From Pseudomonadales bacterium (lineage in GTDB: Bacteria > Pseudomonadota > Gammaproteobacteria > Pseudomonadales > Porticoccaceae): 64,000 bases of DNA. The notes under the pieces were generated by a model. It searched no databases. It was not told where the DNA came from and was given only the letters and a program-made list of their open reading frames with translations. The DNA is taken from positions 61,695 to 125,694 of the forward strand of contig JACKOF010000002.1 of NCBI GenBank assembly GCA_024234435.1. The letters are read 5' to 3'. A program made the translations under genes and the position numbers. Below, one piece after another: positions 8,971 to 63,519 of this stretch (position 1 is the stretch's first letter; each line of letters begins with the position of its first letter).

Positions 8971-9189
8971 GCCGTACTCGTCCTACGTAACAGGTGGGCA
9001 AATTATTATTATGGCCCGAGCATAGCAAAGTAATCAGAACGAAGTCGAACAGGATAACGCTGTTTATTTGACTCACGTCACAAAAAAACAGCAGACGCAG
9101 ACCGGAAACAGGGCCAGGCAAGTTTTATTTTTGCAAAGAAAGAAGCGTGACAATCGAAGACTATAATAGTGGGGAATAAACCCCAAGAA

Positions 9190-9378
9190 CTAACCTGAGG
9201 ATCGCTTGCCCCCGGAAGATTCCTTGTTTTTACCAGCCCGCTCTGCCACTTTAGATCGCTGCTCTTTCCGCTCTTCCAGCACTTCAAGAAACGGAAACAG
9301 ATACTTTTCAGAAAAAAACACGACAGACATAAGCACAACCAGCATTATAAATAACGCTACCGCTAATTCTCCATACAT
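9190..9378 (-). CDS. Possible small membrane protein (62 aa: one N-terminal TM, charged Lys/Glu/Ser tail)
   Basis: ATG preceded by AGGGAT about 7 nt upstream. Hydrophobic N-terminus (LAVALFIMLVVLMSVVFF). No homology recognised and it could be spurious. Confidence 0.3.
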   Translation of the reverse strand: MYGELAVALFIMLVVLMSVVFFSEKYLFPFLEVLEERKEQRSKVAERAGKNKESSGGKRSSG

Positions 9379-9474
9379 AAAAACATCCCTATTTTTAAAC
9401 AGTATTATCGGTTGAGCCTTACGATATCACCTTACGGCAGAATCAGGTGCGAAAGGGCGCGCAATAATACAGTC

Positions 9475-9708
9475 TTAATTGTTAAATTTGTAGTCTCCCG
9501 CTACAAAAGATCGCTTGCCAGCGAGAAGATCCTGTCTCAACTGCTCAATATTCACCATTCTTGACCCTCCAACCTTGACGGTTGGTATCGCCCTGGTTGT
9601 TACCCAGGAACGAATCGTTTTCGTTTCCTTGCCAATCAACTGGGCAAACCGGTCTTGCGATAACAAGGGAGGCATGGATACGAAGTTAATTTTTTCAGCA
9701 AGTTCCAT
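9475..9708 (-). CDS. Small HTH DNA-binding protein resembling phage P2 Cox / excisionase-type regulators
   Basis: 77 aa. The pattern SQDRFAQLIGKETKTIRSWVTTRAIPTVKVGG matches, from memory, the Cox-family pattern (EFAKLIGKS..AVRRMIDKGKLP). Divergent from a C-repressor-like gene. Confidence 0.55.
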   Translation of the reverse strand: MELAEKINFVSMPPLLSQDRFAQLIGKETKTIRSWVTTRAIPTVKVGGSRMVNIEQLRQDLLAGKRSFVAGDYKFNN

Positions 9709-9814
9709 TTGTTAATTACCACTGCGTCAAATAGAATCAAAAACTACACGGCAACATCAGCAAAATTAGAGACTAGCACATTTGTGTTATTAATACACGG
9801 TAATTATTATACCA

Positions 9815-10057
9815 ATGAGCAATATCGGCGACAGAGTACGTAGCCTGCTGGAAATACGCGGCATGCCAAACAAGCTTGAAAGCATGACTGGCATAGACCG
9901 TGACACTTGGCGCAATGTTCGTTATGCCAAACAAAAAGTCAACGAAGACCACATCACCGCCGTTTGTGAAGCCTTTCCGGAGTATCGTTTGTGGGTGGAA
10001 ACAGGTCACACGGCCCCGGATAAAGGCCAAATCTGTCCGGACAATTCGGACAAATAG
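9815..10057 (+). CDS. Small HTH repressor resembling the phage P2 C / Phage_CI_repr-type immunity repressor
   Basis: 80 aa. HTH region (IGDRVRSLLEIRGMPNKLESMTGIDRDTWRNV). The C-terminal YRLWVETGHTAPDKGQICP resembles the P2 C tail (recalled as Y.MWFMTNQIAPESGQIAP). Confidence 0.55.
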   Translation: MSNIGDRVRSLLEIRGMPNKLESMTGIDRDTWRNVRYAKQKVNEDHITAVCEAFPEYRLWVETGHTAPDKGQICPDNSDK

Positions 10058-10338
10058 TATTCACAGCTCATCTATGCCTGCTGCTCACGCCGAAACCTCT
10101 TTCTATCACAGCCTCCCTCATTATGCACTTGAGCGATCACCGCAGGCCATAAATGGCCGGTCAACGTGCTTCATTAACACATAAAAACAAAACACAACCA
10201 ACGGTTGTTGCCGTAACAGCAAACCACTTGGCATAACAACATATTGTGGTTATCATGCCCTGATTAGCACAATATAAGCGTAAGCCTCCGCTCGCAATTG
10301 GGCACGTTAAATAACAACTCTCGGTGAAAAACTAGGAA

Positions 10339-11280
10339 ATGACCCTGTTTAACCGGTTAAATAATAAAAAATCGTCAAAGAAAGGGGTTGTCGGGATAGA
10401 AGTTGGGGATAGAGGTGTTGCATTCGCACATCTGAAGCTTTCCCCCAGCTTGGCTCTGACAAGCTGTAATTACCTGACGGCTGCTGACGAAACATCCATC
10501 ATCTCGACTCTCAGGGAGGATATCTCTTCCCTCCATCTGGAGAACACCCCCTGTAATGTTGCCCTCTCAACAGATGATTACGCTCTTTTGCTGGTCGAAC
10601 CTCCCAAGGTGCCTGAGAATGAACTGAGGGATGCCATTCAGTGGAAGATCAAGGATCTTAGCCCAATTCCTATTGAAAAAGCCGTGATAGACGTCTTTCG
10701 CATGCCAGAAAATGCCGGTTCCGTCGGTAAAGGTATGGTATTTACCGTCGTCGCCAAAAAAGCGGCTGTTGAAAACCTGGTGTCTCTGGTTGAAGGTGCC
10801 GGTCTGAAAATGAACGCCATCGATATACCGGAGCTGTGCCTTCGCAATTTTGCTCTGCTCCAGCACTCGGAGCAAAGCATGCTGATTGCCAGGCTAATGT
10901 CTGACAATTCTCAGGTAACGGCCATATCCCGAGGCGAGTTGTACCTCAGTCGCTTATTTAACTTCCGCTACACGGGTGGTGTCATTTCTGAAGAAAGGGC
11001 CGAGAACCTGACACTGGAACTGCAACGTTCGGCAGACTACCTCCGTCATCAGATGCACCAGCCCACACCCAGCCAGATATTACTGCTGGGCAACGGACTG
11101 CAGGATCGCGACCTGCCTGAATCCATTAATGACAATTTCTCCGGTGAAGTAAAAACACTGGATATAAGCGATGCTCTCCCGATAACAGCAGGTGTTGACA
11201 GGCAAGTACTCAACCGCTGTGCCATTGCCATCGGTGCAGCCCTGCGCGACCATGTGAGCACCCTGGGAGTCAACCGTTAA
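10339..11280 (+). CDS. mshI: MSHA pilus biogenesis protein MshI (PilM-like, actin-fold assembly protein)
   Basis: First gene of a colinear msh operon. PilM-like N-terminus (VVGIEVGDRGVAFAHL). The call rests on position and order. Confidence 0.75.
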   Translation: MTLFNRLNNKKSSKKGVVGIEVGDRGVAFAHLKLSPSLALTSCNYLTAADETSIISTLREDISSLHLENTPCNVALSTDDYALLLVEPPKVPENELRDAIQWKIKDLSPIPIEKAVIDVFRMPENAGSVGKGMVFTVVAKKAAVENLVSLVEGAGLKMNAIDIPELCLRNFALLQHSEQSMLIARLMSDNSQVTAISRGELYLSRLFNFRYTGGVISEERAENLTLELQRSADYLRHQMHQPTPSQILLLGNGLQDRDLPESINDNFSGEVKTLDISDALPITAGVDRQVLNRCAIAIGAALRDHVSTLGVNR

Positions 11281-11882
11281 TGCAACAGGTTAACCTCTAC
11301 CGCCAGGAATTCAGCAGCACTACCGAACTGCCCGGCTTTCAACAGATGCTTCTCGCATGCGCAACAACTGTTATTCTGTTCACGCTTTTTTTCGGTGTGC
11401 AACTATTCCGCATGTACCAGCTCGACTCACAGATCGCAGAGGCCGAAGTCACCGCAGGGGAGCTGGTAAAAACCATCGAGAACATCAGCCTGTCTGCTTC
11501 GACAGCTGACGGCAGTACCAATGAACATAATATTGATCAGCTAAAAACCCGGCTGCTATATCTTCGGGAACTCACTACAGCACTGTTTAATCAGCCTGGC
11601 GACACCAACAGGCAAGGTTTTTCAAATCAGATGGACGGCCTTGTGCGCCAGCATGTAGAAGGCATTTCCTTGTCAAACATGCGGATTTTCAACGGCGGCC
11701 AAAATCTCGCACTACAGGGTACGGCATCCCCTGCAGAGAAGGCACCTCACTATTTAACGGCACTGCAGTCCGATACCGCTTTCAGTGGCGTCGATTTTGG
11801 TCAGTTGCAAATGCGTCGCAATGAACAAAACGGAGAAATAGATTTTTCCCTTCACCATCATGAAGCAGATGTGTCGCAATGA
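11280..11882 (+). CDS. PilN-like MSHA assembly protein (equivalent to the C-terminal half of long MshI proteins)
   Basis: The stop of mshI (TAA, 11278-11280) shares one base with this gene's ATG at 11280 (TAATG). Starts MQQVNLY, with a single TM (MLLACATTVILFTLFFGVQLF), typical of PilN/GspL-C proteins. Confidence 0.7.
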   Translation: MQQVNLYRQEFSSTTELPGFQQMLLACATTVILFTLFFGVQLFRMYQLDSQIAEAEVTAGELVKTIENISLSASTADGSTNEHNIDQLKTRLLYLRELTTALFNQPGDTNRQGFSNQMDGLVRQHVEGISLSNMRIFNGGQNLALQGTASPAEKAPHYLTALQSDTAFSGVDFGQLQMRRNEQNGEIDFSLHHHEADVSQ

Positions 11883-43213: not shown

Positions 43214-44821
43214 GTGGCAATCATGACAGAACTTCTCCACCAGCTTATCAGCAAACAGGCAAAAAAATCGCCTGAAGCCCGAGCCATGTTTTTTAAAGAC
43301 CAGCAATTCAATTATGCAGAGCTGGATCGTCAAATAACCCATGCCGCCGCAGGGTTGCGGTCACTGGGTATTTGCCCCAATGACCGGGTCGCCACTTATC
43401 TGCCCAAACTGCCTGAAAATGTTTTCAGTCTGTTTGGTGCTGCCGCCGCAGGCGGTGTTTTTGTGCCCGTAAATCCATTGCTCAAACCTGCTCAGGTTGC
43501 CTATATTCTTCAGGACTGCAACGTTAAAGTACTGATTACCTCGGCCCAGCGACTCGGCATTTTAGGCGACGTGCTGGACAGCTGCCCGGATCTGACAACC
43601 GTTATTGTTGTGGAAGACGAACGGCCTGCTACAGGGCAACAATCACACTATGAAACGCTTAACTGGACGTCTTTCACAACGACCGGCAGCGAACAGAACC
43701 ATCACACCCGCATCGATGCGGATATGGCTGCCATTCTTTATACCTCTGGCAGTACCGGCAACCCCAAAGGCGTTGTGCTCTCACACAAGAACATGGTCAC
43801 CGGCGCGCACAGCGTCGCCTCCTACCTGAACAACACTGCCGAAGACCGCTTGCTGGCCGCACTGCCCTTCAGCTTTGATTACGGCTTCAGTCAGATGACA
43901 ACGGCTTTTTCGGTAGGCGCTTCAGTCACGCTAATGGATTATCTGTTGCCAAGGGATGTGGTCAGGGCAATCGAAAAATACCAGATCACCGGCCTGGCTG
44001 CCGTACCACCACTCTGGAACCAGCTGGCGCAACTGGAATGGCCCCAAGCTGCTGCTGAAACTTTGCGTTACATCACCAATAGTGGCGGAGCCATGCCACA
44101 AGCAACGACCGCCAGATTGCGGAAAGCGCTACCAAAAACAAACGTGTTCCTGATGTACGGACTGACCGAGGCTTTTCGCTCCACGTTTCTGCCACCGGAA
44201 CAGATCGACATCCGCCCCGACTCCATGGGCAAGGCAATTCCCAATGCCGAAGTCATGGTGGTGCGCCCCGATGGCACGGAGTGTGACCCTCACGAACCAG
44301 GAGAACTGGTACACCGTGGCTCATTGGTAGCAATGGGTTACTGGGGCGACCAGGCGAAAACTGCCGAACGATTTAAGCCTTCCCCTGGCAGGCCAACAGA
44401 TATTCCCATTACTGAAATTGCCGTATGGTCCGGCGATCAGGTAAAGAAAGACGAGGAAGGCTTCCTCTACTTTATCAGTCGCATGGACGAAATGATCAAA
44501 ACCTCCGGCTACAGGGTCAGCCCGTCTGAAGTGGAAGAGGTTATTTATAACCTGAAAGCAATAAAAGAGGTGGCTGCGCTGGGTTTACCCCACCCCACTC
44601 TCGGGCAGGCTATTCTGATCGTTGCCAGCCCAACAGACAGTAACGTTGAGAGTTTGGAAAAAACTATTCTTACACACTGTAAAAAAGAACTACCCGGCTT
44701 TATGGTGCCTCAGGCCGTTATTGTTGAAAGCGAATTACCCCATAATCAAAATGGCAAAATAGACCGAAAAATGCTTTCCATTCAACACCAAAACATTTTT
44801 CAGGATAACGGACAGGAGTAA
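43214..44821 (+). CDS. Acyl-CoA/acyl-carrier ligase (AMP-forming), exosortase-A-associated type
   Basis: AMP-binding motifs ILYTSGSTGNPKGV, YGLTE and SGDQVKKDEEGFLYFISRMDEMIKTSGYRV. The start is GTG 43214 or ATG 43223. Confidence 0.9.
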   Translation: MAIMTELLHQLISKQAKKSPEARAMFFKDQQFNYAELDRQITHAAAGLRSLGICPNDRVATYLPKLPENVFSLFGAAAAGGVFVPVNPLLKPAQVAYILQDCNVKVLITSAQRLGILGDVLDSCPDLTTVIVVEDERPATGQQSHYETLNWTSFTTTGSEQNHHTRIDADMAAILYTSGSTGNPKGVVLSHKNMVTGAHSVASYLNNTAEDRLLAALPFSFDYGFSQMTTAFSVGASVTLMDYLLPRDVVRAIEKYQITGLAAVPPLWNQLAQLEWPQAAAETLRYITNSGGAMPQATTARLRKALPKTNVFLMYGLTEAFRSTFLPPEQIDIRPDSMGKAIPNAEVMVVRPDGTECDPHEPGELVHRGSLVAMGYWGDQAKTAERFKPSPGRPTDIPITEIAVWSGDQVKKDEEGFLYFISRMDEMIKTSGYRVSPSEVEEVIYNLKAIKEVAALGLPHPTLGQAILIVASPTDSNVESLEKTILTHCKKELPGFMVPQAVIVESELPHNQNGKIDRKMLSIQHQNIFQDNGQE

Positions 44822-44825
44822 ACCG

Positions 44826-46061
44826 GTGAGCAAACCTCAACCCCAGCATACGGATATGGCGCAATTTCCCGTCGTCAACAACTGTCTTCAAATAGGCGGC
44901 ATGCCGGTCACGGACCTGGCTGCGAAAGTAGGCCAGACACCCTTCTATGCTTACGACCGTCAATTGATGACAGACCGTGTTGCCGAACTTCGACGCATTT
45001 TGCCCTCAGGAATCAGCCTTCACTACGCCATGAAAGCCAACCCCATGCCCGATGTGGTTAACCATTTTTCAACGATTACAGATGGGCTGGATGTCGCTTC
45101 GGGGGGCGAACTAAAAGTCGCGTTAGCCACAGGCATCAACCCCAAAGAGATCAGCTTCGCCGGCCCGGGAAAATCAAATGAAGAGCTCGAAGCCGCTGCC
45201 AGAGCGGGCATTATCATCAACCTCGAATCGGAAGGTGAAATGGAGCGGCTGTCCATAATTGCCAGCACCCACGACCTCAACCCTGTCGTATCTGTGCGTG
45301 TAAACCCGGACTTTGAGCTCAAAACCTCCGGCATGAAAATGGCGGGCGGCCCGAAACCATTTGGTGTTGATGCCGAGCGCGTACCCGAAATGCTCAAACG
45401 CATCGGTGAACTACCATTTGAGTTTGTCGGTTTTCATATTTTTAGTGGTTCTCAGAACCTCAAACCCGACGCCATTATCGAAGCGCAAACAAAAACGTTT
45501 CAACTGGCAATACAGCTCGCAGAACATGCGCCTTCACCCGTTAGATGGCTAAATATCGGCGGAGGTTTCGGCATCCCTTACTTCCCCGGCGAACAGCGTC
45601 TGGACTTGCAACCCATCGCCGACAACCTTGAAATACTGCTGAAAGAATACCAACCGAAACTGCCCGAAGCAGAAATAGTGATTGAACTGGGCCGTTACCT
45701 CATTGGCGAGGCAGGTGTGTACGTGTGCGAAATTATCGATGTTAAGGAATCCCGTGGAGAAACCTTCGCCATTGCCAATGGTGGCTTACACCACCACCTG
45801 TCACTATCCGGCAATTTTGGCCAAGTCATTCGCAAAAACTACCCGGTCTGCATTGGCAATAATGTGGTCAGCGAAGACACAGCGGCAGTCAATATTGTCG
45901 GGCCACTGTGTACACCACTGGATATTCTGGCCAACAAATATGAACTGCCACTTTTGAAAACCGGAGACCTGGTGGTGGTGTTTCAATCCGGCGCCTATGG
46001 CTTCACCGCCAGCCCCAGAGATTTTCTGAGCCACCCGGAAGCCCGGCAAATACTGGTTTAA
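44826..46061 (+). CDS. PLP-dependent decarboxylase (Orn/DAP/Arg decarboxylase fold type III), exosortase-A-associated type
   Basis: PLP-Lys context HYAMKANP. GGGFGIPY. GPLCTPLD. Begins 4 nt after the ligase stop. Confidence 0.9.
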   Translation: MSKPQPQHTDMAQFPVVNNCLQIGGMPVTDLAAKVGQTPFYAYDRQLMTDRVAELRRILPSGISLHYAMKANPMPDVVNHFSTITDGLDVASGGELKVALATGINPKEISFAGPGKSNEELEAAARAGIIINLESEGEMERLSIIASTHDLNPVVSVRVNPDFELKTSGMKMAGGPKPFGVDAERVPEMLKRIGELPFEFVGFHIFSGSQNLKPDAIIEAQTKTFQLAIQLAEHAPSPVRWLNIGGGFGIPYFPGEQRLDLQPIADNLEILLKEYQPKLPEAEIVIELGRYLIGEAGVYVCEIIDVKESRGETFAIANGGLHHHLSLSGNFGQVIRKNYPVCIGNNVVSEDTAAVNIVGPLCTPLDILANKYELPLLKTGDLVVVFQSGAYGFTASPRDFLSHPEARQILV

Positions 46062-46173
46062 GGGTCATTTTTTGCGACCGACCGGCAGATGATTTTCACC
46101 CTGAAATGTATATACTGGCCTCTGCATAAATAACCCCTGAAAACATTTACTGAATTTTAAATTGGCAAACAGC

Positions 46174-46407
46174 ATGGATACACTGGAGCGCCTCGCGCTT
46201 GTTTTTGAAGACACCTTTACCGACGATTCCTACCAGTTTTCTGAAGAGACCACTCAGGAGGATATTGAGGAGTGGGACAGCCTCAATCAGGTTCGACTAC
46301 TGATGGCTATCGAGCAGGAGTTCGGCATCAAGTTTGCTCTTGATGAGATGGAAAAGCTCACAGGTGTTGCCGCTATTTCCGCTGTCATTTCAGAAAAACT
46401 GAATTGA
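46174..46407 (+). CDS. Acyl carrier protein 1
   Basis: 78 aa, acidic, with phosphopantetheine-site context EEWDSLNQVRLL. ATG at 46174 (the track TTG is at 46162). Confidence 0.8.
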   Translation: MDTLERLALVFEDTFTDDSYQFSEETTQEDIEEWDSLNQVRLLMAIEQEFGIKFALDEMEKLTGVAAISAVISEKLN

Positions 46408-46454
46408 CCGCTCCTCTTGTGATTATTCGCCTCGATAGTTGCTGAGAATCCCGC

Positions 46455-48356
46455 ATGAATGACCTGCCCTGGCTACTGCCTGCTCCTGAAAATTTTAACG
46501 AGCAATGCGCGCAAATGCTCTCTGCTGATAACAGCCTGGACCGGGCCTGCCAACTGGCAGCCACATCGCTTTCATTGAACCAGTGCAACCGACTGATCAA
46601 AGCTCTGGACAAAAGCCATGATCAACAACAGGCCACCAAATCGCCACTGACACACTTCAAGCTCGGTATCGTCAGCAATGCCACGTTTAACCTGTTTGTA
46701 CCGGCGCTACGAGCCTCAGCGCTTCGCCACGGTATTTTACTTGATGTTGTGTTAGCCGATTTTGACCAGATTATGCAAGAAGCATTAAACCCTGAATCCT
46801 TGATCAATAGTGCCGATGTCGATGCCATATTGATCGCACTGGACCATCGGGGCTACCCTTTCGCTACTGACACCCTTGCCAGCACTACACCCGATACCAC
46901 CGCAGCAGATGCCGTCGAACACCTGAACCAACTGCGTTCGGGGTTTGCACGGCACAGTGGTGCTCCCTGCATAGTGCAAACGCTGGCATGCCCACCCTTT
47001 CCGTTACTGGGAGGGCTTGATACGCAACTGGCAGGGCTGTTGCAAAAAGAAATCCGGGATTTCAACAGCCAACTTTGCGATATTGTCGCCGACAGCACGG
47101 ACATCATGCTCGATATAGCTTCACTTGCCAGCCGCGTCGGAACCGGTCAATGGTTTGATGAGCGGCAATGGTTAATGTCTCGCATTGCCATGGCTAACGA
47201 ATTCATCCCCCTATACTGTGATCATGTTGCCCGCACCCTGGCTGCCATGCGCGGCAAAAGCAAAAAATGCCTTATTCTCGATCTGGATAACACACTTTGG
47301 GGTGGCGTGATTGGTGACGATGGCATGGATGGCATACATATCGGCCAGGGTCATCCTGTGGGAGAAGCTCATCAGGCCATACAGCGGTATGCAAAAGAGC
47401 TGAAAAATCACGGCATTATTCTTGCGATTTGCTCAAAAAATGAAGAAGCCATCGCCCTGCAACCATTCCGGGAACATCCCGATATGGTGTTGCAAGAAGA
47501 GGACATCGCTGTATTCGTTGCCAACTGGAATGACAAAGCCAGCAATATTCAGCATATTGCCCGTACACTCAATATTGGCACCGATGCACTGGTGTTTCTG
47601 GATGATAACCCAATGGAACGCGATATTGTCCGGACGGTATTACCCGAAGTTTCAGTTCCCGAATTACCCGATGATGCAGCGTTGATTCCACGCACACTGG
47701 CTGCGGCAGGCTACTTTGATTTAATCAGCTTTACCACTGACGATGCCCAGCGAAGCGAGCAGTACCGCGCCAATGCTATACGTCAGAAGGCTATGGAGTC
47801 TTCCGGGAATATCGACGACTACCTGGCCAGCCTGGATATGGCCATTGAGTTCAAAGCCTTTGATGCCAGCGGACGCAAACGCATCACACAGCTGATCAAC
47901 AAAACCAATCAGTTTAACCTGACAACCCGACGCTATACCGAAGCAGAAGTGGAACAGTTTGAAGTAAACCCGCAATACATCACCCGGCAGGTTCGACTTT
48001 CCGACAAATTTGGTGACAACGGCATGATCAGTGTGCTGATCGCCAAGAAAGAGCAGGACTGTCTGATTGTTGACACTTGGCTCATGAGTTGCCGGGTAAT
48101 TAAACGCCGCGTTGAAGATGCACTTTGTGACGAACTGGTCGCCGCAGCAAAAGCTGAGGGCATCACAACCATCCGTGGTGTCTACCTTCCTACGTCCAAA
48201 AACCCCCTGGTAAAAGAACACTACCAAAATCTGGGTTTTTCTCTCATTGACAGCACTGATGGCACCGACACATGGGAACTGAACATCAACGATTATCAAG
48301 CCAAAACACCCCCCATGTCCGTCACAAGACAATCACCTGAAATGGTCGGGGCCTGA
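46455..48356 (+). CDS. FkbH-like protein (HAD-IIIC phosphatase domain plus FkbH/GNAT-like C-terminal domain)
   Basis: HAD motif I LILDLDNTLWGG, motif II ICSKN, motif IV FLDDNP. Also INKTNQFNLTTRRY and WLMSCRVIKRRVE blocks. Confidence 0.85.
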   Translation: MNDLPWLLPAPENFNEQCAQMLSADNSLDRACQLAATSLSLNQCNRLIKALDKSHDQQQATKSPLTHFKLGIVSNATFNLFVPALRASALRHGILLDVVLADFDQIMQEALNPESLINSADVDAILIALDHRGYPFATDTLASTTPDTTAADAVEHLNQLRSGFARHSGAPCIVQTLACPPFPLLGGLDTQLAGLLQKEIRDFNSQLCDIVADSTDIMLDIASLASRVGTGQWFDERQWLMSRIAMANEFIPLYCDHVARTLAAMRGKSKKCLILDLDNTLWGGVIGDDGMDGIHIGQGHPVGEAHQAIQRYAKELKNHGIILAICSKNEEAIALQPFREHPDMVLQEEDIAVFVANWNDKASNIQHIARTLNIGTDALVFLDDNPMERDIVRTVLPEVSVPELPDDAALIPRTLAAAGYFDLISFTTDDAQRSEQYRANAIRQKAMESSGNIDDYLASLDMAIEFKAFDASGRKRITQLINKTNQFNLTTRRYTEAEVEQFEVNPQYITRQVRLSDKFGDNGMISVLIAKKEQDCLIVDTWLMSCRVIKRRVEDALCDELVAAAKAEGITTIRGVYLPTSKNPLVKEHYQNLGFSLIDSTDGTDTWELNINDYQAKTPPMSVTRQSPEMVGA

Positions 48357-48357
48357 C

Positions 48358-49812
48358 GTGCCAGAAAAAAAGCGGATTGGTGCGTTCTCGATATCACAGG
48401 CGTTTACCCATGCATTTGCAGAACTGTCTGGCGACAGTAACCCTCTGCATGTGGACCCAATTGCCGCCCGTCGTTATCAATTTGGCACCACCGTTGTGCA
48501 TGGTATCTGTGCTGCATTAAAAGCGCTGGATGTTTTTTTCGGTGCCCAGCCTGCCAGTGGCAACACCCTAGCACTGGCATCGATCAAAATTCAGTTCAAC
48601 AAGCCGCTGCATCACGATGATGATGTGGAAGTGTTTCACAGCATCAATGAAAAATCGCATCGGCTGGAACTGAGCAAAAACGGCAAACGCGCGCAGATCA
48701 TCAGCTTTGAACTGCAATCCATCCATGACAGCGGCAAAGCGACGGTCAAAAGCCTTTCGGAAAACAGCTCTCCGATTTCAATCAACAACTACACTTTTGT
48801 GGAGGCCGCCACTGCCGAAGGCAAGATTCCCTTTAACTGGAATCAACGCCTCGCCGAAGAGCTGTTTCCCAATGCAACAAATGTTTTGCCTGCAAGCCAG
48901 ATCGCTACGCTGCTGGCAACCACCGTTATTGTGGGTATGAAGTGTCCGGGGCTGAACTCTGTTTACGGCGGCTTGAATCTATCATTCAATGCAACGTTAA
49001 TTGCCCAGCCCGGCCCACTGAGCTACCGGGTCAGCGACAGCGACGAGCGTTTTAACCGATTGTTGATTGATACCGAAAACGACATAGCCTCCGGTCAGAT
49101 TGAAACCTTCTACCGCGCACCACCGGTCGTTCAACCTTCTTTCAAGCAAATAAAACCCTTGCTGACCGGCAACGAATTTGCTGCCCAACGTGCACTGATT
49201 ATTGGCGGCTCTCGGGGCCTGGGAGAGATCACTGCAAAAATACTGGCGGCAGGCGGCGCTAAAACTATTATCACCTACGCCAGCGGCCAACAGGATGCCG
49301 AACGTGTCGCCAATGATATTAACGCAGGCAGCGGCTACTGTCAGACCGCCCAATACAATATTTTGAAGCCTGACGTCCACATCGCCCACAGCTTCACCGA
49401 AGAGCCCATCAGCCACATCTATTACCTGGCATCACCGGTTATCAGCAAAAGCGATCACCTGCTGTGGGACGACAGCCTGTTTAACCACTATTACCGCTAT
49501 TACGTTACTGGTCTCAAAGATCTGTTATCCCCTTTTGTAGAAAGTGCCGACTACAAAAAATCGGCGCTGAATATTTTTATCCCTTCCACCGTTTTTCTCT
49601 CGGAACCCATTAAGGGGTTTGGAGAGTATTGTGCTGCTAAAGCCGCCGCCGAAACTTTTGCACAACAGATTCCGCTTGCTGCTCCCAGGTGGTCCGCGTT
49701 CAGACCAAGATTGCCGAGGCTACAAACGGATCAGACCAGTGGCGCCATGTCTGCGGACCCGATGGAAGCCACCACCGTATTACTCAACACTTTATTGTCG
49801 TTGTCATTATGA
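48358..49812 (+). CDS. Bifunctional MaoC-like (hotdog) dehydratase / short-chain dehydrogenase-reductase
   Basis: N-terminus FAELSGDSNPLHVDP...TVVHG (MaoC). C-terminus ALIIGGSRGLGEITA Rossmann loop (SDR). GTG start 1 nt after the FkbH stop. Confidence 0.8.
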   Translation: MPEKKRIGAFSISQAFTHAFAELSGDSNPLHVDPIAARRYQFGTTVVHGICAALKALDVFFGAQPASGNTLALASIKIQFNKPLHHDDDVEVFHSINEKSHRLELSKNGKRAQIISFELQSIHDSGKATVKSLSENSSPISINNYTFVEAATAEGKIPFNWNQRLAEELFPNATNVLPASQIATLLATTVIVGMKCPGLNSVYGGLNLSFNATLIAQPGPLSYRVSDSDERFNRLLIDTENDIASGQIETFYRAPPVVQPSFKQIKPLLTGNEFAAQRALIIGGSRGLGEITAKILAAGGAKTIITYASGQQDAERVANDINAGSGYCQTAQYNILKPDVHIAHSFTEEPISHIYYLASPVISKSDHLLWDDSLFNHYYRYYVTGLKDLLSPFVESADYKKSALNIFIPSTVFLSEPIKGFGEYCAAKAAAETFAQQIPLAAPRWSAFRPRLPRLQTDQTSGAMSADPMEATTVLLNTLLSLSL

Positions 49813-50681
49813 ATCAGCCTGCAGAAAAAACTGTCAGCCCGAACCTTCTTCCCATTGGCGAAGAAAATATCCCCGATGTCGCAGTTTTTTTAAACAGACA
49901 TATGAACAGCACATTCTCTGTCGAAGCGTGGGCGAACGGATTGCGCGCCTGCTGGCTGGAAGACGCACCCAATCATGGCTTTATGCTGCAAGCAGAAGGT
50001 CAGATTGTCGGCGTACTGTGCGCCATCTATTCCCTGCAAAATATTGAAGGCCGCACAGAAAAATTTTGCAATCCGCACACTTGGTGTGTGCTGGAACCGT
50101 ATCGCAGTAAAAGCGTACCCCTGGTGCTCTCGGTTATCCGGCAGGAGGGCTACCACTTCACCATGTTCTCACCCAACAAGGAAGGCGAGCAGATATTCAG
50201 CTACCTGGGGTTCAAACCCCTCGATCGCTCGAAGCTGGTATTGCCACACACCCCCAGCCCAAAGCGTTTCAAAAAAGATGAAATTTTCACCCACGACCTG
50301 ACTCAGTATCTGCCACCAACACTCGCCAAATGCGCCGAAGATCACCAGCCTTATCCCTGGGTGCACAGTTTTGCGTTCCGCTCGGGTGACGAATATTGCC
50401 TGGTTTTTTACAAACCGGGCAAATACAAAAAAATGCCCTGCGCCAACATCACTTACATCAGCAATAAATCTCTGTTCAGCCGTTGCTGGGGCGCTGTAAA
50501 AAATCACCTGTTGTTCAAGAAAGGGCTTTTGGTTACCCGTATTGACGCGCGGTTTCTTGAAAACCCACCCAGGCTATCGTTTAAAACACTTGATGGGCCA
50601 GCCCGTTTTTACCTTAGCAACACCGCCGGGCCTGCAGACATTGAATACATTTATAGTGAACTTACGGTAATGAATCTTTAA
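49809..50681 (+). CDS. Putative acyltransferase-like protein (possibly GNAT fold), function unknown
   Basis: ATGA overlap with the upstream gene. Weak GNAT-like region (GFMLQAEGQIVGVLCAIYS). The call is low-confidence. Confidence 0.4.
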   Translation: MNQPAEKTVSPNLLPIGEENIPDVAVFLNRHMNSTFSVEAWANGLRACWLEDAPNHGFMLQAEGQIVGVLCAIYSLQNIEGRTEKFCNPHTWCVLEPYRSKSVPLVLSVIRQEGYHFTMFSPNKEGEQIFSYLGFKPLDRSKLVLPHTPSPKRFKKDEIFTHDLTQYLPPTLAKCAEDHQPYPWVHSFAFRSGDEYCLVFYKPGKYKKMPCANITYISNKSLFSRCWGAVKNHLLFKKGLLVTRIDARFLENPPRLSFKTLDGPARFYLSNTAGPADIEYIYSELTVMNL

Positions 50682-50722: not shown

Positions 50723-50971
50723 ATGAACTTGCTGGAAGATATAACTCAGATTGTTGCTGAAGTTTTAATGCTTGACGACCAGGCAGACGGTTTTGATGAA
50801 AACACCGCATTGCTCGGCGCAATCCCCGAATTCGACTCCGTGGCTGTTGTCTCACTGGTCACCGCACTGGAAGACGAGTTTGGCTGCACGTTTGACGACG
50901 ACGAACTCAATGCCGACGTGTTCGCCACTATCGGTAGCCTAACCAAAACTGTCGAACAAAAACTCGCCTGA
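50723..50971 (+). CDS. Acyl carrier protein 2
   Basis: 82 aa, acidic, with Ser-site context IPEFDSVAVVSLV. Confidence 0.8.
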   Translation: MNLLEDITQIVAEVLMLDDQADGFDENTALLGAIPEFDSVAVVSLVTALEDEFGCTFDDDELNADVFATIGSLTKTVEQKLA

Positions 50972-51810
50972 TGAACCAACCGTTCTTCCTCAAACCCGGC
51001 TTTATTGAAGGTGAAAAGGGCCCTCTCTTTGCCATACACCATGAACCGGTTATAAAGGCAGACCGCAATGAGTGCGTGGTCGTTCTTTCCGCATTTGCCG
51101 AAGAAATGAACCGTTGCCGCTATATGCAAAACATGCTTGCACAGGCTCTTAACAAACAAGGTTATGGCCTGATTTGCGTAGACCCCTATGGCACCGGCGA
51201 CAGCGCTGGTGAATTTGCCGACGCTGACTGGAACGGCTGGGTCTCTGACAGTATCACCGCAATCCACTATGCCGCAGAACTGGGCTACAACAAAATTTCG
51301 CTACTCGGCATCCGCCTGGGCGCGTTACTGGCGCTGGCGGCAATGCCTTCGGTAAATAATGTCTCCCACCTGCTTCTGTGGCAGCCGGTATACAACGGCA
51401 AGGCGACTCTGACCCAGTTTCTGCGGCTCAAAATTGCCGCAGCCATGGCACGAGGTGAAGACGGCATTACTACCGCTCAACTGGAAGACGAAATCAATCA
51501 GGGTAGCAGCATTCAGATTGCCGGCTATGATGTCTCCCCGGGCCTTTTCAAGGGTATTCAGCAAGCACATATCAACCACCATTTCGATGCAATTCCAGCG
51601 TCTGTCTCTTGGTTTACCGTATTGCCCAGTGCTGACAAAAAAGCGCCACGAGCAGACCTGCAGACCATAGAAAAATGGCGCAGCAAAGGTGTCCAGATCA
51701 ACCACCAGAATATTGTTGGCCCCGCTTTTTGGCAGGCACATGAACGCACCCTGGCGCCCGATCTTGTTCCTGCTACACTCGCCGCAGTAATCGGAGGTGA
51801 AGCGCCATGA
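50971..51810 (+). CDS. Alpha/beta-hydrolase-fold protein, exosortase-A-associated hydrolase type, with Arg at the nucleophile position
   Basis: TGATG overlap with ACP2. DPYGTGDSAG block. The nucleophile elbow reads LLGIRLGALL instead of GxSxG. Confidence 0.7.
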   Translation: MNQPFFLKPGFIEGEKGPLFAIHHEPVIKADRNECVVVLSAFAEEMNRCRYMQNMLAQALNKQGYGLICVDPYGTGDSAGEFADADWNGWVSDSITAIHYAAELGYNKISLLGIRLGALLALAAMPSVNNVSHLLLWQPVYNGKATLTQFLRLKIAAAMARGEDGITTAQLEDEINQGSSIQIAGYDVSPGLFKGIQQAHINHHFDAIPASVSWFTVLPSADKKAPRADLQTIEKWRSKGVQINHQNIVGPAFWQAHERTLAPDLVPATLAAVIGGEAP

Positions 51811-52664
51811 ACGAAAAGGCGGTTGTCTTCAGCTGCGGTAACGACCCGCTGATAGGCATCATTCACCAACCGGATGAACCCGTAAACACAGGGGTTATTA
51901 TTATCGTTGCCGGTGGTCCGCAATACCGGGTTGGTGCCCACCGGCAATTCGTCACCCTTGGCCGCCAGCTGGCCAGCAAGGGGATTCCCACCCTTCGGTT
52001 TGACCATCGCGGAACCGGCGACAGCAGCGGCGATTACCGCGGCTTTGTCGACATGGACAAGGATATTCAGGCCGCCATTGACACACTATTAAAAGAATAT
52101 CCGCATCTGGAAAAAATTGCCTTATGGGGCGAGTGTGAATCCGCTTCTGCCGCCGCTTTCTATGCCTATAATGACGACAGGGTCAGCGGCCTTTTTCTGG
52201 TCAACCCCTGGATACGAACCGAAGCAGGTCAGGCGAAGACCTACCTCAAACACTACTACCGCAAGCGCTTGCGGGATCCAAAATTCTGGAAAAAATTACG
52301 CTCCGGTGAGTTCTCGTTTTTGAAATCTGCAGAAGCTTATTTGAAGCTGCACTCTGAAGCCAGAAAACAAAAACAGTCCGCGGAAAAACCACAGGAAAAC
52401 CTGAAAGAGTTACCTCTTCCCGAGCGCCTGACCAAAAGCCTGCACCTTTTTGCAGGCAACACCTATATTCTCACCAGCGGCAACGACTATATTGCCCAGG
52501 AATTCAAAGACTTTATGGCCACCTCTGATTTATGGAAAAAATCAGGCATCAATGAAAAATCCACCTTTCACGATATGGCCGATGCTGACCACACCTTCTC
52601 GCGCACAGAGTGGCGGGTAGAGCTCTTTCAGCACACAGAAACCTGGCTATTGGCTAGCCAATAA
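51807..52664 (+). CDS. Alpha/beta-hydrolase-fold protein, exosortase-A-associated hydrolase type, with Cys at the nucleophile position
   Basis: ATGA overlap. DHRGTGDSSG block. Nucleophile elbow LWGECESASAA. His context DADHTF. Confidence 0.7.
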   Translation: MNEKAVVFSCGNDPLIGIIHQPDEPVNTGVIIIVAGGPQYRVGAHRQFVTLGRQLASKGIPTLRFDHRGTGDSSGDYRGFVDMDKDIQAAIDTLLKEYPHLEKIALWGECESASAAAFYAYNDDRVSGLFLVNPWIRTEAGQAKTYLKHYYRKRLRDPKFWKKLRSGEFSFLKSAEAYLKLHSEARKQKQSAEKPQENLKELPLPERLTKSLHLFAGNTYILTSGNDYIAQEFKDFMATSDLWKKSGINEKSTFHDMADADHTFSRTEWRVELFQHTETWLLASQ

Positions 52665-52688: not shown

Positions 52689-53411
52689 ATGAAAAAAAAC
52701 GTCATCATCCTCACCCACGGCTGGACCGGCAGCTCCGTTTTTTCTGCACTGATTGGCAAAGCCGGATACTGGAAAGGTGACAACACCCACAAGAAACCTG
52801 ACTACGACACACATGAAAATAAAGAGCTTATTCAGCTGAATGAACGGCTGATGTCTGAGTTAGGCTTCACGGGTGACCACGAGCACGAATTCGATCTGGC
52901 AACCATTCAAAACCTGGCCAAACGCGCCGAAAATATCGACCTGTCTCCCTATCAGGAGTTTGTCGACAAGTGCGAGCAAAACAAACCCTGGATCTGGAAA
53001 GACCCGCGCCTGACATGGACTATTCGCGTATGGGCCAAACTTTTGGATTTAAAAAATATTGCTTTCGTGATTCTCACCAGAGATGATGAACAGGCTTGGA
53101 TATCCTGCAACCTGAGACGGCATATTCAAAGCAAACGTTTTACCAAAGCCTACAATCACGGCATCACCTCTTCACTTCAGAAATTTCTCGATGAAAACCA
53201 GTGTGGTTTCGTGAAATACGAGTTTGAAGATTTGTTGCTCACGCCAGATAAGACCATCGAAGAGCTAAACGGTTTTCTTGATATTAACCTGACTATGGAA
53301 GACCTGACATCTGTCTATCGATATCCTCTTTACAAAAAGTCTCGGAATTGGAAAGACAAGCTGGAGGCAACAGCTATTTATCTGAAAAACTATAAAGAGC
53401 GCTATCGATAA
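52689..53411 (+). CDS. Sulfotransferase-like protein
   Basis: N-terminal PAPS 5'-phosphate-binding-like loop ILTHGWTGSS and 3'-phosphate-binding-like block VILTRDDEQAWIS. Confidence 0.5.
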   Translation: MKKNVIILTHGWTGSSVFSALIGKAGYWKGDNTHKKPDYDTHENKELIQLNERLMSELGFTGDHEHEFDLATIQNLAKRAENIDLSPYQEFVDKCEQNKPWIWKDPRLTWTIRVWAKLLDLKNIAFVILTRDDEQAWISCNLRRHIQSKRFTKAYNHGITSSLQKFLDENQCGFVKYEFEDLLLTPDKTIEELNGFLDINLTMEDLTSVYRYPLYKKSRNWKDKLEATAIYLKNYKERYR

Positions 53412-60825: not shown

Positions 60826-61950
60826 TCATAAAACTTTTTCACCAAATACCATATCTGTTCCACAATTTTCTGAAAAAATGGAATCCAGCATCAAATCACC
60901 GAGCTCTTTTCTGTAGTGCGCAGGCTCCCAGAACCACTTTAATGCAACGCCTTTCTCGCCCTGCGCTGGTAGAGGTTCATGAATATAAGGCGAATCAGCA
61001 GAAAAATTCCACAGCGTAACCCGGCTGCTTTGTATACCCTCAACAATGCCAGTGATTTCCCCCAACCAGTCGGGGTAGAGATCCAACAACCTGTTTTTCT
61101 CAAGAAGATTCCAGAACCTTTCGTGCAGCGGATTAATAAAAAGTACAACTTCGATATCCCGACTGCTCAAAACGGATAAGAATGCCTTCAAGTGCTCAAA
61201 ATCCTCTGACCTCTGGCCATTTTCATAATAAAGGCTCCAGCGCCTTTGATATTTCTCCTGCAACAACTGCTCTTTCTGAAGAAACAGTGCTCGCACACCT
61301 TCAATTCTGGTGCTGCTGGCAAAGTCGTAAGCCGGGTTAAAACCGGCTTCGGTTCTGTCCGTTGCCGGACTTCCCTGCGCGACCACCGTTTTTATTGAAC
61401 TGACCAGAGCGTTCAAGGAAAAGAAGGCGGAATAATAGTCTTTCAGCTGACTCAGACGATACGCACTGTTGATATCGCCGTTAGCCTGATACTGGAGGTT
61501 TGCCACTGGCGATATCCCGCTATTCAACGGAGCGCTGGAACCTTCGGCAACCAGAAAATCCGGAAAGTCCAGACTCATTAAGACCCTGTTAACCGGCTTT
61601 TGATACACCAGATTCAGTGCCGCTGCGGACTGGTACCCAATGCTCGCGCCCGGTATTCCGAGATTATAGGCTTTCCGCCCCCCCGCAGAGAGACAGGCAT
61701 GGTGGGGGTCAACTCCCATCTCGACACGTGAATTGCCAACAATCAGTGTCTGAAAGTCAGCCCTTAACGGCTGATAGGCTTTTGCCAATCTGACCCGGCT
61801 ATTGATGTGAACTTTATAATGATTAAACCCCTCGATGCGTTTTGCACCGGAAACAGCATAAGGGTCAACAAAATAATTGAACACAAAAACCAGACAGCTC
61901 GCAAAAACCAGTGTGAGCAGAAAAGTAACTGTGTATTTTTTTGTTGTCAT
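60826..61950 (-). CDS. Membrane-anchored accessory protein of the MBOAT acyltransferase (DltD/AlgJ-like role inferred)
   Basis: N-terminal TM anchor. IVGNSRVEMG block resembles the SGNH/DltD block I. Lies 9 nt downstream of the MBOAT gene on the same strand. Confidence 0.45.
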   Translation of the reverse strand: MTTKKYTVTFLLTLVFASCLVFVFNYFVDPYAVSGAKRIEGFNHYKVHINSRVRLAKAYQPLRADFQTLIVGNSRVEMGVDPHHACLSAGGRKAYNLGIPGASIGYQSAAALNLVYQKPVNRVLMSLDFPDFLVAEGSSAPLNSGISPVANLQYQANGDINSAYRLSQLKDYYSAFFSLNALVSSIKTVVAQGSPATDRTEAGFNPAYDFASSTRIEGVRALFLQKEQLLQEKYQRRWSLYYENGQRSEDFEHLKAFLSVLSSRDIEVVLFINPLHERFWNLLEKNRLLDLYPDWLGEITGIVEGIQSSRVTLWNFSADSPYIHEPLPAQGEKGVALKWFWEPAHYRKELGDLMLDSIFSENCGTDMVFGEKVL

Positions 61951-61959
61951 CGGCCTGCA

Positions 61960-63519
61960 TCAAAATTGGAAGTAAAGAAACTCGGAAACCTGGCTAAGTG
62001 TTAACACACCAAACAGAAACATCAGCGCAGTCACGACAGCCCACTTGCCCGAAAGGGTCCACTCACAGACACCTTTGGATTTTCTGAAGCCTTTAAAAGC
62101 CGCATCGTTTTCATATAAAACAGGTTCCGCTCTGTGAAAAATCTGTGCCAGATTAGGGGCAAAAAAGGCCAACAGCGCCGCCGGAACAATCCACGCAAAA
62201 TTCTCAACAAACCGTGAACCGCTGGTATAACTGACCCCTACGCCCGCCTGTTGCAACAGCTCGCCAACGTCGCCGAGCCTGGCAACGATCCCGGCCGGAA
62301 TTTGCACACCATTGGCACCGGACATTGCCAGCAAAATCGAATTGGCCTGCTCCAGCGTTGGAGCGCGAAAGAATACCCACGACACAACTACTGCCAGAAA
62401 AGTCAGCAGCCAGCAACTGGCGTTATAGACAGACGACTCACGCCAGTCGAGCCGCGCTACTGTCAGCAACTTGCTCCAGGCATGGTTAATCATCAGGTAC
62501 GTGCCATGCAGACAACCCCAGACAACAAAGGTCCAACCAGCACCGTGCCACAACCCGCCAAGCAGCATAGTCAAAAACAGATTGATATAGCGGCGTGATT
62601 TGCCTCGTCTATTGCCACCCAGGGAGATATAGAGATAATCACGCAAAAACCGCGACAGGGTAATATGCCAGCGCCGCCAAAAATCGACAATGCTGTTGGC
62701 TTTGTAGGGTGAGAAAAAATTAAGCGGCAGGGTTATGCCAAACATTCGCGCGCAACCAATAGCCATATCCGAATAGCCGGAGAAGTCAAAATAGAGCTGA
62801 AAGGTATACGCCAGTGTGCTGCCCCAGGCAGTAAAAAAATCCAGTTGCCCTGCTGCCGGACTGTCATATACCGGCCCCACATAAGCCGATAGACTGTCAG
62901 CCAGAACCGTTTTTTTGAACAGGCCAATACTGAAAATACTGATCCCTACGGCAATATTTTTTGTCCACGACGGCAACGCATCCCGACGCATGAACTGTGG
63001 CAGCATTTCGCTGTGATGAACAATTGGCCCGGCAATCAACTGGGGGAAAAAACAGACAAACAAAGAGTAGTGCAACAAATTATACTCTCGCGCCTTACCC
63101 TCCCATACATCCACCAGATATGAAATCTGTTGAAAGGTAAAAAATGAAATTGCCAGCGGCAAAAATATTTTTTCCAGTTGCAGACTGGTACTGAATACAG
63201 CGTTGATATTATCTACAAAAAAATTGGCATATTTGAAATAACCCAGCAATGCCAGATTAATCCCAACACCGCAAATCATTACCAGCTTTGAAGGCTGCCC
63301 CGAAAAACGCGAGATCAGTTTGCCAACGTAATAATTGAAAAAAATGGAAAAAAGAATAAGAAATAAATAGGCCGGATTCCAGTAACCATAGAAAAACAGA
63401 GAGGCCGACACCAGCACGGCAAAGCCGATCTCTGTTTTCCGCCTGCGCAGGCATAACACGTACAGCAGCAACGTGCAGGGAAGAAAAGCAAAAATAAACT
63501 CGAAAGAGTTAAAGAGCAT
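61960..63519 (-). CDS. MBOAT-family membrane O-acyltransferase (AlgI/DltB-like)
   Basis: Starts MLFNSFEFIFAFLP. Conserved blocks FWRRWHITLSRFLRDYLYISLGGNRRG and GGLWHGAGWTFVVWGCLHG. Confidence 0.9.
   Translation of the reverse strand: MLFNSFEFIFAFLPCTLLLYVLCLRRRKTEIGFAVLVSASLFFYGYWNPAYLFLILFSIFFNYYVGKLISRFSGQPSKLVMICGVGINLALLGYFKYANFFVDNINAVFSTSLQLEKIFLPLAISFFTFQQISYLVDVWEGKAREYNLLHYSLFVCFFPQLIAGPIVHHSEMLPQFMRRDALPSWTKNIAVGISIFSIGLFKKTVLADSLSAYVGPVYDSPAAGQLDFFTAWGSTLAYTFQLYFDFSGYSDMAIGCARMFGITLPLNFFSPYKANSIVDFWRRWHITLSRFLRDYLYISLGGNRRGKSRRYINLFLTMLLGGLWHGAGWTFVVWGCLHGTYLMINHAWSKLLTVARLDWRESSVYNASCWLLTFLAVVVSWVFFRAPTLEQANSILLAMSGANGVQIPAGIVARLGDVGELLQQAGVGVSYTSGSRFVENFAWIVPAALLAFFAPNLAQIFHRAEPVLYENDAAFKGFRKSKGVCEWTLSGKWAVVTALMFLFGVLTLSQVSEFLYFQF

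Follow-up and report, generated by a model that had tools for sequence, protein, structure and literature searches.

A carrier-protein-linked pair of exosortase A-associated alpha/beta-hydrolases with arginine and cysteine at the nucleophile elbow

The subject of this report is a pair of adjacent alpha/beta-hydrolase genes in the genome of a Pseudomonadales bacterium of the family Porticoccaceae (GenBank assembly GCA_024234435.1, contig JACKOF010000002.1, positions 61,695 to 125,694 of the forward strand). This stretch of 64,000 nucleotides, referred to in its entirety as the window, contains three tightly packed plus-strand genes at 50723-52664, which encode a small acyl carrier protein (ACP2), hydrolase 2, and hydrolase 1 (Table 1). 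The stop codon of ACP2 and the start codon of hydrolase 2 share 1 nucleotide, and the two hydrolase genes overlap at an ATGA stop/start. An original prediction, made from the nucleotide sequence, held that the serine of the canonical GxSxG elbow is replaced by arginine in the first hydrolase and by cysteine in the second, and suggested that the two proteins pair as a pseudo-enzyme and a cysteine-dependent enzyme, possibly a heterodimeric thioesterase or transacylase acting on neighboring ACPs rather than two ordinary serine esterases. Both codons and the overlap lie in the sequence exactly where that prediction placed them.

The hydrolase pair and its exosortase A setting

Hydrolase 2 scores 252.2 bits against TIGR03101 (hydr2_PEP; E 5.9e-75, profile positions 3-262 of 266, cut-off 202.75) and hydrolase 1 scores 311.9 bits against TIGR03100 (hydr1_PEP; E 3.4e-93, profile positions 2-272 of 274, cut-off 168.45). 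Since both scores exceed the curated NCBIfam cut-offs, the two proteins are ordinary members of these families, an assignment to the XrtA/PEP-CTERM system that the original prediction lacked. Judged from these scores, the window holds a typical copy of the TIGR03101/TIGR03100 pair, one more member rather than a new kind. The families are already named (‘hydrolase 2’ and ‘hydrolase 1, exosortase A system-associated’, both hypothetical equivalogs), and their chemistry is unassigned in NCBIfam. Pfam matches (E <= 0.001) were generic only and comprised Hydrolase_4 (PF12146) for both proteins and additionally Abhydrolase_1 and Abhydrolase_6 (PF00561, PF12697) for hydrolase 1. Neither protein matched the Thioesterase family PF00975 at this threshold, and they are hence not members of it. 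Additionally, neither matched PF01738 (DLH, with Cys-His-Asp) in Pfam, and PhaC families were absent from the NCBIfam and Pfam matches of both. Weak DLH matches were confined to two distant fused paralogues. A signal-peptide-like N-terminus, as read from the sequence, is absent from both hydrolases, which fits cytoplasmic action on an ACP.

The setting is that of an exosortase A locus. A gene for XrtA (TIGR03109, 339 bits) lies on the same contig at contig position 141983-142756, approximately 16 kb past the window. In a sample of 401 genomes of the phylum, all 8 other genomes with a hydr2_PEP protein above the cut-off also encode XrtA and an adjacent hydr1_PEP protein. Within the window, PrsT, a THxN PEP-CTERM protein, and a TIGR03694 acyltransferase are encoded upstream of the pair, and a Wzx flippase, an AsnB-type amidotransferase, and a DltB-like MBOAT protein are encoded downstream. 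An AMP-forming ligase (TIGR03098) and a decarboxylase dependent on pyridoxal phosphate (PLP) (TIGR03099), both scoring above their cut-offs, are encoded in the same operon as the pair.

Table 1. Positions in the window of the hydrolase pair, its predicted key residues, and associated genes.
Feature	Position	Strand	Basis
ACP2, carrier protein, 82 amino acids	50723-50971	+	PF00550 PP-binding, 35 bits
Hydrolase 2, 279 amino acids, TIGR03101 hydr2_PEP, nucleophile-less alpha/beta-hydrolase fold	50971-51810	+	Hidden Markov model (HMM) match and AlphaFold2 model
Hydrolase 1, 285 amino acids, TIGR03100 hydr1_PEP, alpha/beta-hydrolase fold, predicted Cys-Asp-His triad	51807-52664	+	HMM match and AlphaFold2 model
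Hydrolase 2 Arg115, codon CGC, nucleophile-elbow position	51313-51315	+	Sequence, alignment to GxSxG Ser
Hydrolase 1 Cys110, codon TGT, predicted nucleophile	52134-52136	+	Sequence, alignment, model
Hydrolase 1 Asp227, codon GAC, predicted triad acid (SGNDY)	52485-52487	+	Conservation; after strand 218-224
Hydrolase 1 His262, codon CAC, predicted triad base (DADHTF)	52590-52592	+	Conservation; after strand 252-257
ATGA stop/start overlap of hydrolase 2 and hydrolase 1, translational coupling	51807-51810	+	Sequence
AMP-forming ligase TIGR03098, presumed ACP loader	43214-44821	+	795 bits vs cut-off 592
PLP-dependent decarboxylase TIGR03099, BtrK-like	44826-46061	+	601 bits vs cut-off 478

Residues at the nucleophile elbow and in the pocket

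Arg115 of hydrolase 2 is located inside the segment LLGIRLGA (surrounding sequence ISLLGIRLGALLA) and Cys110 of hydrolase 1 inside LWGECESA (surrounding sequence IALWGECESASAA). In phmmer alignments to PDB chains, LLGIRLG is found opposite ILGFSMG (9w30) and LLGLSLG (9h0z), and LWGECES opposite VIGLSMG (9pjb) and VLGLSMG (8b4u), such that Arg115 and Cys110 each align with the serine of GxSxG. Further, the adHTFs segment of hydrolase 1, which includes His262, aligns with gdHtFs of 9pjb and gdHvFt of 8b4u. When the two family alignments were compared with each other by hhalign, Cys110 of hydrolase 1 paired with Arg115 of hydrolase 2. AlphaFold2 models, predicted as single chains, reached a predicted local distance difference test (pLDDT) score of 91.4 for hydrolase 2, with Arg115 between strand 108-114 and helix 117-127, and 92.0 for hydrolase 1, with Cys110 between strand 103-109 and helix 111-120. 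The best Foldseek matches were PET46 (8b4u) and TTL lipase (7q4h) for the hydrolase 2 model and feruloyl esterases, TTL lipase, and PET46 for the hydrolase 1 model. The agreement of phmmer, profile-profile alignment, and AlphaFold2 places Arg115 and Cys110 at the elbow and leaves no alternative Ser there. Thus, in the models as in the alignments to solved esterases, these two residues occupy the strand-turn-helix nucleophile elbow, as had originally been predicted.

Conservation was counted for each protein and its top 120 homologues, whose identity ranges down to 35-45% (121 sequences), and, for hydrolase 2, also among 150 family members at 28-46% identity to the query that a profile search recovered from 1.8 billion cluster representatives (50%-identity clusters; 151 sequences counted). 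Arg115 is present in 121/121 close homologues and, in the profile alignment, in 151/151 representatives, and Cys110 is present in all 121 hydrolase 1 sequences, a regularity that greatly exceeds what chance would produce. The GxSxG elbow of canonical serine hydrolases is therefore absent, being replaced by GIRLG and GECES, with no Ser in the elbow column of any of the sequences in these sets. BLAST alignments had indicated 5 non-Arg sequences among the 150 representatives, raising the possibility of a Ser displaced elsewhere at the hydrolase 2 elbow; the profile alignment identified these as alignment shifts.

The fate of the remaining catalytic residues differs between the two proteins. Among the hydrolase 1 homologues, Asp227 is found in 120 of 121 sequences (one gap) and His262 in 119 (two gaps), in agreement with the partners proposed earlier in the SGNDY and DADHTF motifs. 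The alignments show that hydrolase 1 keeps a full triad in which Cys110 replaces Ser and is accompanied by Asp227 and His262; catalysis by this triad is predicted. The residue that follows Cys110 is acidic (E or D) in 119/121 homologues, and it might be speculated that this suits a substrate with a free amino group. Another cysteine of hydrolase 1, Cys10 (51834-51836, in the FSCGN motif of strand 1), is shared by all of the 120 closest homologues; some remoter true members have His, Val, or Gly in its place.

In hydrolase 2, the candidate acid positions after strand 7 vary, and neither an acid nor a His is conserved. His257 (in AHERT) was considered as a surviving catalytic His and rejected: the position is H in no more than 89 of the 121 close relatives and 17 of the 151 representatives, in which Q (59) and P (26) prevail. 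In view of the missing acid and His, hydrolase 2 is predicted to be a pseudo-enzyme as far as the canonical mechanism is concerned, in line with that half of the original prediction. Among the representatives, N47, R50, D71, S78, W137, R152, and Y186 are invariant. The loops that usually form the active site also contain invariant residues (E44, E45, N47, and R50 after strand 3; W137-Q-P after strand 6; R152 with G185-Y186 of the lid; W254 and E258 after strand 8), which suggests that the pocket is under selection. The conservation pattern thus indicates that the canonical catalytic machinery of hydrolase 2 is lost and that a pocket under strong selection is kept.

Coupling, fusion, and the carrier-protein cassette

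Among the 150 hydrolase 2 representatives, 21-23 (approximately 15%) are single-chain fusions of hydr2 with hydr1, 567-670 amino acids in length and fixed in their order. The fusion proteins retain the Arg elbow in the hydr2 domain and the Cys, Asp, and His in the hydr1 domain. A FastTree phylogeny of the hydr2 domains requires 7 or more transitions between the fused and the split state, indicating that fusion or fission happened repeatedly. Fusions that are frameshift artefacts at the ATGA overlap are unlikely, since approximately 20-70 residues lie between the aligned domains as compared to the approximately 10-15 expected of a simple frameshift, and since the fusion in genome G219, a species representative, is an intact open reading frame (ORF) of 620 amino acids. 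The ATGA overlap itself is found in 8 of 11 unfused loci, and the other unfused loci have gaps of -8 to +1 nucleotides. Sub-threshold relatives in other genomes likewise have an Arg-type followed by a Cys-type domain, as gene pairs or as fusions. The recurrence of fusion with the same order of domains and the conservation of the ATGA overlap are strong if indirect evidence that hydrolase 2 and hydrolase 1 form a physical, stoichiometric two-part unit.

Synteny was assessed in 11 related loci, comprising the 8 above-cut-off hydr2_PEP loci of the 401-genome sample and 3 intermediates, by comparison with the proteins of the window. An ACP2 orthologue is located directly upstream of hydr2 in 10 of the 11 loci, forming a contiguous ACP2-hydr2-hydr1 unit, and in 7 of these 10 the ACP2-hydr2 junction overlaps by 1 or 4 nucleotides. 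The TIGR03098 ligase adjoins the unit in 7/11 loci, and the ligase and the TIGR03099 decarboxylase are both adjacent in most, often divergently transcribed. The best solved relatives of the ligase are the nonribosomal peptide synthetase (NRPS) adenylation domains of LgrA (268 bits). The solved protein most closely related to the decarboxylase is BtrK, ‘L-glutamyl-[BtrI acyl-carrier protein] decarboxylase’ (7ru7, 2j66), at 252 bits, as compared to 179 bits for the best solved diaminopimelate decarboxylase. This far closer relationship to BtrK than to diaminopimelate decarboxylases suggests an ACP-bound amino acid as the substrate. The pathways to butirosin, closthioamide, and fluvirucin follow this logic: after adenylation, an acidic amino acid is attached by its side chain to an ACP, where it then undergoes decarboxylation (PMC11350588).

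The link to neighboring ACPs that had been proposed from the window alone is supported by synteny for ACP2 and not for ACP1, the other carrier protein of the operon, which is absent from 11/11 related loci. The same is true of an FkbH-domain protein, a fusion of a MaoC dehydratase with an SDR, and a protein of 289 amino acids with no Pfam or NCBIfam match, which together with ACP1 occupy 46162-50681 between the decarboxylase and ACP2, and of a weak sulfotransferase-like gene that follows hydrolase 1 (52689-53411). The absence of these five genes from all 11 loci indicates an insertion specific to the lineage of the window; they look like a second carrier-protein branch, possibly glycerate-derived. 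Approximately 9 kb from the ACP cassette, the DltB-like MBOAT (61960-63519; 178.7 bits against TIGR04091, below that cut-off) and a neighboring gene for an unassigned protein of 374 amino acids (60826-61950, minus strand) are found; neither belongs to the conserved cassette of other genomes.

Relatives of the pair extend beyond these loci, and distant paralogues are also found in genomes without XrtA. Directly upstream of 1 of 10 distant paralogue loci is an NRPS C-A-T module; others have Wzc or GH2-like genes for neighbors, or none that is recognisable. The idea that a carrier gene is always upstream across the wider superfamily is thus ruled out (1/10). In the one locus with an NRPS (L045, genome G233; 6792-11845), the C-A-T module has no thioesterase domain and is followed by hydr2-like (GLGLG) and hydr1-like (GICSG) genes, an arrangement suggesting that distant relatives of the pair can sit where the release enzyme of an assembly line is expected. 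Three further loci (L020, L021, and L022, in genomes G251, G068, and G365) contain ORFs of approximately 1100 amino acids in which a Wzx/MOP-type flippase is joined to a hydr2-like domain (GQGLG, no Arg) and a hydr1-like domain (GRCSG). XrtA was not found in G251, the one genome of a flippase fusion that was tested. Finally, in a protein of 708 amino acids (P0343), a hydr2 domain is C-terminal (residues 430-697) and the N-terminal region has a weak ATP-grasp match; this may be a fusion of a loader with hydrolase 2.

Proposed role, alternatives, and known systems

As a whole, the original reading of the pair is supported by the comparative evidence, and the pair may have a thioesterase-like or transacylase-like function though it falls outside PF00975. 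The pair is probably a two-part Cys-dependent off-loader or transacylase for (amino)acyl-ACP2, with hydrolase 2 as a non-catalytic partner. In this model, hydrolase 2 and hydrolase 1 would be ancient paralogues that act as one two-part module. The NRPS-adenylation-domain-like ligase would charge ACP2 with an amino acid, and the BtrK-like decarboxylase would then strip a free carboxyl from the tethered substrate, as in the butirosin, closthioamide, and fluvirucin pathways. By inference, since the conserved cassette would yield a small aminoacyl-S-ACP, the hydrolase pair would remove the acyl group. Cys110 of hydrolase 1 is envisaged to accept the (amino)acyl group from the phosphopantetheine thioester, forming an acyl-thioester intermediate, and to pass it to an acceptor (the polysaccharide or another component of the exosortase pathway) or to water. 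Hydrolase 2 would not be catalytic, and its Arg-containing pocket would bind the carrier arm, the substrate, or the acceptor. The comparative evidence turns the ‘two hydrolases’ of long-annotated exosortase A loci into a concrete, testable chemistry model. If the model is true, the pair represents a new type of carrier-protein off-loading enzyme and points to amino-acyl modification in the floc- and biofilm-forming bacteria that carry PEP-CTERM/exosortase systems.

It should be noted that several observations weigh against an off-loading role. Genome G159 has no ACP directly upstream of hydr2, and in the fused G219 locus the ACP is 4.5 kb away. Distant fused paralogues lack an adjacent carrier gene and are found instead beside Wzc, GH2-like, or Wzx modules, which indicates that the carrier link is not universal in the wider superfamily, and the elbow Arg gives way to Gly or Ile in some distant hydr2-like partners. 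Further, literature searchable in full text contained no biochemical or genetic characterisation of TIGR03100 or TIGR03101, and no paper found there describes the arginine and cysteine at the elbow, the fused forms, or a connection of these families to a BtrK-like decarboxylase. The sole mention found is an annotation table for Burkholderia Bcam1334, a TIGR03100-like gene in an exopolysaccharide (EPS) cluster (PMC3584217).

A more specific version of the off-loading model, which we put forward tentatively and consider rather unlikely, sees the pair as a transacylase dedicated to conjugation, in effect a D-alanylation-like system that serves Gram-negative slime from the cytoplasm. Cys110 would take a decarboxylated aminoacyl group (beta-alanyl or gamma-aminobutyric acid type) from ACP2, and the pocket of Arg115, Glu44, and Glu45 would hold the acceptor, be it a lipid-linked EPS repeat unit or another exosortase intermediate. 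The triple fusions of Wzx with hydr2 and hydr1 domains would fit action on a lipid-linked repeat unit just before flipping. If this is true, the polysaccharide that anchors PEP-CTERM proteins carries an amino-acyl decoration. Alternatively, the pair could serve only in editing, like a type II thioesterase, by hydrolysing mis-primed or stalled acyl-ACP2 while another enzyme, the DltB-like MBOAT or the TIGR03694 acyltransferase, carries out the transfer. Both candidate transferases are present in the window, and stand-alone alpha/beta-hydrolase thioesterases beside carrier proteins commonly have an editing role. However, editing thioesterases are monomeric Ser enzymes of PF00975, which neither protein of the window matches, and the MBOAT is outside the conserved cassette in other loci. 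A dedicated step in the main route is favored by the strict translational coupling of ACP, hydr2, and hydr1, by the invariance of the Cys, and by the conservation of a second subunit; an editing role is considered unlikely. To the same degree unlikely is that hydrolase 2 is itself an enzyme or receptor (using Arg115 with Glu44, Glu45, Arg50, Arg152, and Tyr186 for catalysis or ligand binding that has nothing to do with hydrolase 1) that acts in a step successive to that of hydrolase 1 without forming a complex with it. Its invariant residues map to the lid and to the loops that follow strands 3, 5, 6, and 8, where alpha/beta hydrolases usually form the active site, and indicate a pocket that selection maintains and that is not decaying; yet repeated fusion in a fixed order and conserved ATGA coupling argue for a physical unit, and some distant partners swap Arg for Gly or Ile while the Cys partner stays.

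The two hydrolases could also be ordinary esterases unrelated to the ACP, for example deacylases, or enzymes of the dienelactone hydrolase type, with small esters or the polysaccharide as substrates. The best structural matches are indeed feruloyl esterases, lipases, and a PETase, and the TIGR03100-like gene in the Burkholderia EPS cluster has been guessed to encode a polysaccharide-processing hydrolase (PMC3584217). This explanation is nevertheless highly improbable: the proteins lack a signal peptide and so would not encounter exported polysaccharide, both families have lost the elbow Ser throughout, PF01738 is unmatched, and the synteny with the ACP, ligase, and decarboxylase is tight. Another possibility is that hydrolase 1 is a polymerase that oligomerises hydroxyacyl thioesters, the monomers being supplied by the MaoC-dehydratase/SDR protein and FkbH. 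Polyhydroxyalkanoate (PHA) synthases do have an alpha/beta-hydrolase fold, a GxCxG box, and a Cys-Asp-His triad, and the MaoC-SDR fusion and FkbH are in the operon. There is hardly any likelihood of such a function, however, given the absence of a PhaC match in NCBIfam or Pfam and the absence of FkbH, MaoC-SDR, and ACP1 from each of the 11 related loci; the conserved partners are instead an amino-acid-type adenylating ligase and a BtrK-like decarboxylase. Off-loading or transfer of an (amino)acyl group from ACP2 by a Cys-dependent two-part module thus remains the reading we favor.

Partnerships of this general kind are found elsewhere in the hydrolase fold. ABHD5 (CGI-58) is a hydrolase-fold protein without a nucleophile that serves as a partner or activator, and the class III PHA synthase PhaC/PhaE is a hydrolase-fold enzyme with Cys-Asp-His that needs a second subunit. 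No sequence relationship of either to the pair was detected, and to the best of our knowledge an invariant Arg at the nucleophile position of a paralogous partner is not known from ABHD5/CGI-58 or PhaC/PhaE. Closest in both sequence and fold are PET46 (8b4u), TTL lipase (7q4h, 9h0z), and feruloyl esterases (3pf8, 7xrh), which share with the pair an N-terminal hairpin, a GTGDS motif after strand 4, and the geometry of the elbow. In contrast to the pair, these enzymes rely on Ser-Asp-His and work on free esters without a partner protein, and their identity to the window proteins is 13-21%.

In terms of pathway, BtrJ is an ATP-grasp enzyme, and BtrH, the hand-over enzyme of butirosin biosynthesis, is not known to be an alpha/beta-hydrolase pair. 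A review says of BtrJ only that it activates by adenylation (PMC11350588). The cassette resembles the BtrJ/BtrI/BtrK, CtaD/E/F, and FlvN/L/O systems in combining an adenylating enzyme, a small ACP, and a fold-III PLP decarboxylase that acts on an ACP-tethered amino acid (PMC11350588). It differs from butirosin-type pathways in that its loader is a ligase of the ANL/adenylation-domain type and its context is an exosortase/EPS locus rather than an antibiotic cluster. With regard to the chemistry proposed for Cys110, ObiF1 (obafluorin) and SulM (sulfazecin) contain thioesterase domains with a Cys nucleophile that act on carrier-bound substrates (PMC6668435, PMC11298585). They share with the pair the alpha/beta-hydrolase fold, the substitution of Cys for Ser, and a small carrier-bound aminoacyl or peptidyl thioester as substrate, which for the pair is proposed. 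The thioesterases of ObiF1 and SulM, however, are single PF00975 domains that are fused to a synthetase and have no nucleophile-less partner, whereas the proteins of the window are free-standing and paired.

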